This document shows positions 7,715 through 9,120 of a stretch of 64,000 bases of DNA, piece after piece (within the stretch, counting starts at the first letter, position 1; each line of letters begins with the position of its first letter). The position numbers and the translations under genes are program-made. The notes under the pieces were generated by a model. The model ran no database searches. It saw only the letters and a list, made by a program, of their open reading frames with translations, and was not told where the DNA came from. The DNA is from Leucoraja ocellata (Eukaryota). The DNA lies in contig JAWMAR010000005.1 of the NCBI GenBank assembly GCA_036785375.1, forward strand, positions 19,654,001 through 19,718,000, in the 5' to 3' direction.

Positions 7715-9120
7715 AATTGGGAAATAAAATGGAATGTTGGAAACTAATTTTTCTCTGCTATTTTAGACAATAGACAATAGGTGCAGGAGGAGGCCATTCG
7801 GTCTTTGAGCCAGCGCCGCCATTCAATGTGATTATGGCTGATCTTCCCCAATCAGTACCCCGTTCCCGCCTTCTCCCCATATCCCCTGACTTTGCTATCT
7901 TAATTTTAATTATAAAACAGGGTATCTCACTAATCCTTGAACAGTGGGAATTGAAATCGGTGGCTTAGGGGAGGGGTTGAGTGACGTTCAAATTTACATT
8001 TGCATTTATTTAATTAAAACATTGATTTAGCAACATTGTGCATTTTCACTATTAAACGTAGACTACTATATGACTTAAAACCTTTTCCTGTTAAAGTCAC
8101 GAAGCAAACTCAGATATTGTTTTAATAGATTGCAGGTTGTAATTTATAATTGGTATATTTTTTATTCGTTTCCTATCGGACAGAGATACAATGTTAATCA
8201 TTCGTTCTTCAGTGCCGATGACATTGGGAACGTTAACTCGTTTTAAAGATGCTGGAAACGGAACTAAGCGTCATTGTATAAACATTCATTTCAATGGATT
8301 ATTATTGAATTCATTAAGGCAATGGTGCACACAGACAAACATTGAAACCTGTACCAATTTATTTAATTATGAAGTATTTACATGTTCTTACAATTTATAT
8401 GCTACATTTAGTTTCCAGAAGGTGTGGTACATAACCTCTATTAATTCAGATATTATATTGAGAGAGTTATTTTTAATCCTTATAATGTAATCTCATACAT
8501 GTGTTTAATCTGGTGTGAATGTAATGTTATTGTCGGCTGGTTTGCGTTTCGGAATTTACTTGCAATTACTGTCGGCATACAAATGATCGGTATATTCTCG
8601 TGAGTGATGGGCCAACAAAATACAGAAAAAAGTGTGTTATTTTAAGTGTGTTATTTGTTGTTAAATAACAGAGCTACCATTTCAATCCCATCCACCCCCT
8701 TAGTTGGTTTCGTCCGATGGACACATTTAAGGCCAAATTTCACGAACAAGATTGTGATTGTTTATTTTTGTCTTCTCCCAAATTATGTTCGGGAGCCCGA
8801 CATGGAAAACCCGTTACCCTTCCATTTTCCGTGATTTTGTCAGATAATCTCTGAACACATTTATAAAACAAAAACTCTTCCCTCTCCCTCCAAATCAAAA
8901 GTTTTGCCATGGGCATGCACAGTGGCCCAAGCGAAACCTACCTAAATTATTTAATTTTAATTAAATGAATGCAAATGTAATTTTGAACGTCAGTCAAACC
9001 CTCCTTTGAACCATTGATTCCAATTCCCACTGTTCACAGATTAGTGGGACAACTGTTCTATAATTCAAATAGCAGAGAAAATGTTGTTTTCAACATTGCA
9101 CATCATTTCACCAATCTCCA
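7715..9120. repeat. Inverted pair of ~170-bp octamer-bearing modules in the J-Cmu1 intron
   Basis: Left copy ~7715-8030 (split by a CR1 tail at 7765-7900) is the reverse complement of 8944-9120. ATTTGCAT at 7998-8005 and ATGCAAAT at 8969-8976. Confidence 0.85.

Follow-up and report, generated by a model that had tools for sequence, protein, structure and literature searches.

The inverted octamer-bearing pair in the J-Cmu1 intron of skate IgM clusters: a likely templated insertion, with its left octamer as a candidate Oct site

The window, by which we mean the whole stretch of 64,000 nucleotides of the Leucoraja ocellata genome analysed here, carries an IgM cluster that looks intact, with V at ~3920-4447, two D segments, JH, Cmu1, Cmu2-4 and both membrane exons. 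The following elements frame the J-Cmu1 intron and its comparison with the promoter.

3820..3919, forward strand: proximal VH promoter/5' leader region, without an octamer; 12/100 sites variable against 24% in the intron (p=0.002), the positive control for constraint
5570..5632, forward strand: JH segment with its signal, read from the sequence (pattern match at 5594-5622); the J-Cmu1 intron begins after it
9888..10184, forward strand: Cmu1 exon, 93% identical to an IgM-type protein of Amblyraja radiata; 41 candidates in the genome

The 41 Cmu1 candidates of the L. ocellata genome comprise the window's own and 40 others, and cross-cluster comparisons were made on the window plus these 40 fetched clusters, one of which (L062) is truncated by the end of its contig and has no left copy of the module described below. 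The clusters fall into two subfamilies, ~97% and ~86% identical to the window, with one further cluster intermediate between them.

Several other properties of these clusters were recorded. Among the 40 V-bearing IgM clusters (L061-L100 and the window), 20 are partly or fully joined in the germline from V to J: four carry one join, 15 carry two, and one (L083) is fully joined and out of frame; the window's own cluster is unjoined. Germline-joined clusters have been described in PMC5192425, the accessible part of which does not use the word 'enhancer'. The CDR regions of the V exon (window 4220-4370) show up to 3.1 changes per site across clusters, against 0.4 in introns, and the 100 bp upstream of the first membrane exon (19100-19200) are conserved to the same degree as that exon (5% variable, up to 20 paralogs). 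A near-perfect palindrome of 205 bp at 6037-6241 consists of head-to-head pieces of a common short repeat and is missing from many paralogs. Tandem arrays occupy 32590-36745 and 59464-62746, a 4-kb array of 8-bp units and an array of ~370-bp units.

A preliminary description of this DNA had drawn attention to two inverted copies of ~170 bp in the J-Cmu1 intron, ~0.9 kb apart and ~80% identical by eye. The features in and around these copies are as follows.

7706..7763, forward strand: left (source) module, 5' part; aligns reversed to 9064-9121 with 13 mismatches in 57, 8 of them fixed in all lineages
7764..7891, reverse strand: LINE 3' tail that splits the left copy, with a near-12-bp target-site repeat; its match at 32474-32603 follows a LINE RT ORF (31502-32470)
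7903..8030, forward strand: left (source) module, core; 83.8% identical to the right copy, 30/128 sites variable across clusters (p=0.45)
8874..8944, forward strand: Penelope-like RT relic, upstream half; 70-72% identical to 5/10 fetched dispersed copies
8945..9121, reverse strand: right copy, a 177-bp inverted and probably templated insert with an octamer at 8969-8976; a clean insertion when set against intact element copies
9122..9589, forward strand: Penelope-like RT relic, downstream half; 72-74% identical to 10/10 fetched copies, with 19,363 first-look candidates in the genome

A search within the window confirms the pair. Its main part aligns 7903-8019 with 8955-9070 over 117 columns at 83.8% identity (E 5e-29), and a second part aligns 7716-7763 with 9067-9115 at 81.6% identity. 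Each copy holds a perfect octamer (7998-8005 on the left, 8969-8976 on the right), the CRE-half-site motif TGACGTTCAAA (7982-7992; 8982-8992 on the reverse strand) and the Ikaros/RBPJ-like motif GAACAGTGGGAATTG (7939-7953; 9021-9035 on the reverse strand), all where the description had placed them. AT content around the octamer is 66-69%. Both copies are present in all 40 complete clusters, and the right copy in 41/41. One point needs correction: the GAACAGTGGGAATTG 15-mer is kept in both copies of the window but seldom beyond it, being exact in both in only 2/40 clusters. Two extra bases interrupt it in most left copies and in the right copies of subfamily B (6/7 left and 4/7 right rows inspected); the shared 15-mer is thus partly an accident of the window's cluster.

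Each octamer adjoins a polyadenylation hexamer (8005-8010; 8964-8969), which reads antisense on the left and sense on the right. The sense hexamer stands beside the right octamer in 39/41 clusters, but is absent in the window's cluster. In cluster L087 the same CRE change occurs in both copies, possibly through conversion between them.

How did the right copy arise? Two intact element copies (L146, L147) align through position 8944 and resume at 9122 with nothing between, which defines an insert of exactly 177 bp and bears out the earlier proposal that this copy came by insertion into a Penelope RT relic. An intact relative of the interrupted element (L144) encodes an RT followed by a GIY-YIG-like motif, a layout that we take to be that of Penelope. 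At each junction of the right copy three bases (CTA and TTT) are shared with the ends of the left sequence, while neither a target-site duplication nor terminal (inverted) repeats were found at the ends examined. The exact boundaries, these microhomologies and the missing terminal inverted repeats fit the signature of templated insertion (MMB-TI/MMBIR; PMC8421209, in part), with the reservation that 3 nt of microhomology is short and the event is old. That signature, as given in the accessible part of the same source, consists of an inverted copy of nearby DNA with microhomology, the template lying within ~100 bp by definition of the search. The skate insert resembles it in that nearby DNA was copied inverted, with short flanking microhomology, and inherited through the germline; it departs from the definition in that its template lies ~0.9 kb off (between inner ends) and that it measures 177 bp, is old and has been multiplied into 41 clusters (PMC8421209, in part).

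The LINE tail at 7764-7891, labelled CR1 in the preliminary description, is missing from the right copy, in agreement with the view that the left copy was split later, outside the motifs. By the time the subfamilies parted, it had gathered only 1-2 changes in 93-98 sites, and so was inserted shortly before then. Since the insert lies in the relic and the tail in the left copy only, the Penelope relic came first, followed by the inverted copy, the LINE tail and the expansion of the clusters. How old the duplication is can be bracketed only: when the subfamilies separated, divergence stood between ~1-2% and at most 22%, so that left and right may have diverged slowly, a point against the passenger reading set out next.

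We consider it probable that the right copy is a one-time, microhomology-guided template-switch copy of nearby intron, a passenger spread by cluster duplication and not one half of a selected pair. The insert, its source 0.9 kb upstream, the microhomologies, the presence in 41 clusters and the later LINE tail in the source are direct observations; that repair produced the copy and that the right copy is free of selection is likely. By such a route, a strand that broke or stalled within the dead Penelope element would have met three shared bases, switched template there, copied 177 bases of adjacent intron backwards and then returned, and duplication of whole clusters would have spread the pair to 41 IgM clusters.

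Is the module restricted to immunoglobulin loci? The preliminary description had left open a dispersed transposable element. DNA searches of the genome with either copy gave 81 candidates, of which 40 were scored for each. A 24-base core pattern allowing up to 2 mismatches returned 80 matches genome-wide, against 1 for the control, and 80/80 fall in the 41 IgM clusters (39 left, 41 right). The module is therefore not a dispersed high-copy repeat, within searches that rely on exact words and could miss copies below ~75% identity. Plain spacer (8031-8600) is equally confined to IgM clusters (40 candidates), so confinement to the Ig locus by itself proves no function. Four 20-mer matches outside IgM (C80 twice, C99, C842) were set aside as chance, there being no similarity beyond the 20-mer, and the J pattern led to a fifth locus (C266) that proved not to be an Ig gene. 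Fourteen loci fetched with the V pattern comprise 3 IgW, 5 V genes of other type, probably T-cell receptor V genes, and 6 without an Ig match; the module is absent from all 14. Light-chain and IgNAR introns were covered by the genome-wide 24-mer search only. A metagenome scan with the module core gave 0 matches.

Three near-identical IgW clusters (L106-L108, L120-L122), examined over ~20 kb each, contain neither the module nor an octamer, the octamer scan covering all that lies between the V promoter and the last of the constant exons fetched. In the IgM clusters, the promoter had been described as lacking an octamer, and the element is indeed absent from the 600 bp upstream of the leader ATG in all clusters (0/41), in agreement with shark IgH promoters (PMC2435157, in part). 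The proximal promoter at 3820-3919 has GC-rich boxes and a TATA-like element in place of the octamer.

Could the left copy nevertheless work as an enhancer? The reading that best survives beside the passenger copy sees in the left copy the core of an E-mu-like enhancer, which would bind Oct factors and start a ~1.6-kb I-mu-like sterile transcript, the right copy adding little. It overlaps with the passenger-duplicate reading on the origin of the pair and differs in asserting function. Judged from the sequence, we regard it as possible, though doubtful. Two elements are central to it.

7992..8010, forward strand: candidate Oct site, in which the consensus octamer at 7998-8005 overlaps a one-mismatch octamer at 7992-7999; the perfect octamer is found in 40/40 clusters
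9590..9608, forward strand: invariant 19-base run with a donor-like GT at 9596; the same 9-mer in 40/40 paralogs

The 19 bases of 7992-8010 are without substitution across clusters, and the sole small deletion in this region occurs in L087, a cluster with a broken Cmu1. Both points favour the left enhancer, as does the octamer-less promoter. The limits of the 19 bases were set post hoc, and across the intron, stretches this invariant account for 13% of all 8-mers, 3.3% of all 14-mers and 0.84% of all 19-mers. An octamer is expected in a 4.25-kb stretch of this genome with a probability of 0.22 (15 in 255,510 bases). Counting against a mere passenger, near-octamers number 14 in the intron and 8.3 in shuffles (p=0.039); upstream of the insert they number 10 and 7.3 (p=0.19). 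Against function count the surrounding 120 bp, which stand at just the 66th percentile of intron conservation, the IgW clusters without an octamer, and an unrelated third octamer in the Cmu3-Cmu4 intron (15586-15593), a control that is perfect in 19/20 paralogs. The region 3' of TM2 holds no cluster-shared octamer, and the module is absent there in the 14 clusters for which a second stretch was fetched.

In mammals, the octamer has a role in the I-mu sterile promoter. The skate module resembles mammalian E-mu in its J-Cmu intron position (5632 to 9888), its consensus octamer and its AT-rich surroundings. It differs in having two inverted copies, no conserved E-box/ETS core that we could find and, in a test of low power for short sites, no conservation peak of the module as a whole. 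Within 7900-8100 no E-box of CAGGTG/CAGCTG type (muE5/muE2) and no PU.1-type site is conserved, as judged by consensus patterns. Since an E-box/ETS core was not found and activity is only a candidate property, we do not class the module as a member of E-mu, with which it shares intron position and octamer. A further point against the left enhancer is that the mammalian octamer lies outside the E-mu core (PMC1800861, in part). More favourable to it is the E-mu3' enhancer of channel catfish, which is octamer-centred, with two variant octamers and a muE5 site, and lies 3' of the mu gene; the left site of the skate shares its one-mismatch octamer variant, functional in catfish, and the overlapping octamers recall the catfish pair (PMC1800861, in part). 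The skate site differs in lying 5' of Cmu1 and in having no conserved muE5-type E-box (PMC1800861, in part). OCA-B is present in sharks (PMC13043367, in part). Should the intron hold an Oct-dependent enhancer, we would tentatively name the left octamer at 7992-8010 as its likely working site.

Of the sequencing runs listed, none holding this DNA is recorded as RNA and none bears an ATAC or ChIP label, most having no library record. Two contig runs guessed to be RNA, both from one study, bear on the sterile transcript. Their intronic contigs extend from 7977 or 8178 to ~9562 at a depth of 2-10 and cover both octamers or the DNA between them, while Cmu1 contigs of the same runs reach depths of 14-110, with other ends that fit JH splicing. 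Non-repeat bins inside 7931-9624 are covered in 14/14 (X14) and 12/14 (X12) cases, against 0 of 10 bins outside; both DNA-type runs cover 30/30 bins. The RNA-guess contigs lie near the assembly threshold, where holes prove nothing. As the contigs come without strand, start or join, they give a weak hint only of a sterile transcript, and among the contig rows shown none joins 9595 to Cmu1. The GT at 9596 ranks just sixth among intron GTs by a rough score and is unexceptional. The loose end of X14 may be explained equally well by an antisense RNA that terminates at the AATAAA next to the left octamer. Three raw RNA runs (X22-X24) hold almost no IgM exon reads and are therefore uninformative on enhancer activity; their reads fall on known repeats, none at 7915-8075. 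Transcription of the E-mu-MAR is on record (PMC9971809, in part).

A fuller version of the left-enhancer reading can be drawn up from the sequence, and we think it rather unlikely as a whole. The left double octamer at 7992-8010 would be the core of an elasmobranch IgM intronic enhancer and an I-mu-like promoter; a ~1.6-kb sterile exon (~7950-9595), made partly of dead Penelope and an inverted spare copy of the enhancer, would be spliced to Cmu1 at a donor found in all clusters; and each of 41 autonomous clusters would have its own copy, with subfamily-specific losses of sites tuning which cluster opens first. Neither an account of an elasmobranch IgH enhancer nor a skate B-cell ATAC study came up in our literature search, outside of which lay several key papers by Hsu and Litman. 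A term search of the accessible part of PMC2191167 gave one reference line and no relevant content.

Does the likeness of the two copies indicate selection on both? The preliminary description had taken the retention of motifs amid divergence as the mark of a selected, quasi-palindromic pair of enhancers compensating for the octamer-less promoter. We consider this improbable. The two copies differ at 18 of 116 columns, and their three longest exact runs total 41 bases, no more than permutation yields (p=0.69). An exact octamer is expected with a chance of 0.25 at this left-right divergence, and p would be 0.001 only had 34 motif sites been named beforehand. Because the motifs were chosen for being identical, their retention between copies is no evidence of selection. 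Nor does either copy beat the intron across 40 clusters: variable sites amount to 23% in the left core and 25/123 (20%, p=0.18) in the right core, against 836/3430 (24%) in the intron background. The same test flags the proximal promoter (12%), for which a regulatory role is better supported than for the pair in the intron. In Cmu4, variable sites make up 2-9% per bin (20 paralogs), unlike in either module copy. Cmu1 itself looks unconstrained, so the power of the test is limited, and with a total tree length of 0.50 substitutions per site it is low where sites are short. The two DNA-type runs come from organisms A and C, which are too closely related to serve in a test of selection.

The single motifs tell a similar story. 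The right octamer is perfect in 31/41 clusters and changed in 10/41; that every one lies within one mismatch (40/40) speaks against a mere passenger. On the left, the CRE 11-mer is exact in only 19/39 paralogs and TGGGAA, the Ikaros-like site, is changed in 18/39, both being altered throughout subfamily B. Mutations at these three sites (right octamer, left CRE, left TGGGAA) occur in many clusters whose V and Cmu1 frames are open, and loss of the right octamer has no link to broken genes, Cmu1 being broken in 1/10 such clusters.

What favours a selected pair, besides the presence of both copies in every complete cluster, is the likeness of the right core between subfamilies (4/123 differences against 266/3411; p=0.035, uncorrected and one of 17 regions), the stretch 8945-8992 with 0/48 subfamily differences (p=0.021, uncorrected), and fixed left-right differences at 8/116 in the core against 8/57 in the 5' part. 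The palindrome of the mouse IgH 3'RR resembles the skate pair in that a module with motifs recurs in inverted orientation at an IgH locus (PMC4757795, PMC5449612, both in part). It spans 25 kb, lies downstream, keeps its architecture across mammals and has been tested for function (PMC4757795, PMC5449612, both in part); the skate pair spans 1.4 kb, is intronic, traces to one insertion and has been seen in close skates only. The idea of a duplicated enhancer under selection is not supported.

That the module is what remains of an old transposon of low copy number, or that the pair acts as an RNA hairpin in the pre-mRNA, is highly improbable: the arms are 84% complementary and diverged copies could have escaped the exact-word searches, but the ends have neither terminal repeats nor a target duplication, a search with a profile built from both copies gave nothing convincing elsewhere in the window or in 56 non-intron loci (the best match, at E 0.011, being a 20-mer), and left-right transitions show no G-U bias (7 against 5).

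The pair is thus real, IgM-specific and likely well explained as a templated insertion; judged on its sequence, the pair has lost ground as an enhancer, and the left octamer remains a fair candidate. In cartilaginous fish, dozens of separate IgM clusters are driven by octamer-less promoters, and the opening of one cluster at a time has been argued to depend on limiting promoter-enhancer complexes (PMC2435157, in part). A candidate of 20 bases with natural variants over 41 clusters would offer a cheap test of how IgM clusters open. The locus also illustrates how one repair event can give a young multigene family a striking inverted pair of motifs.
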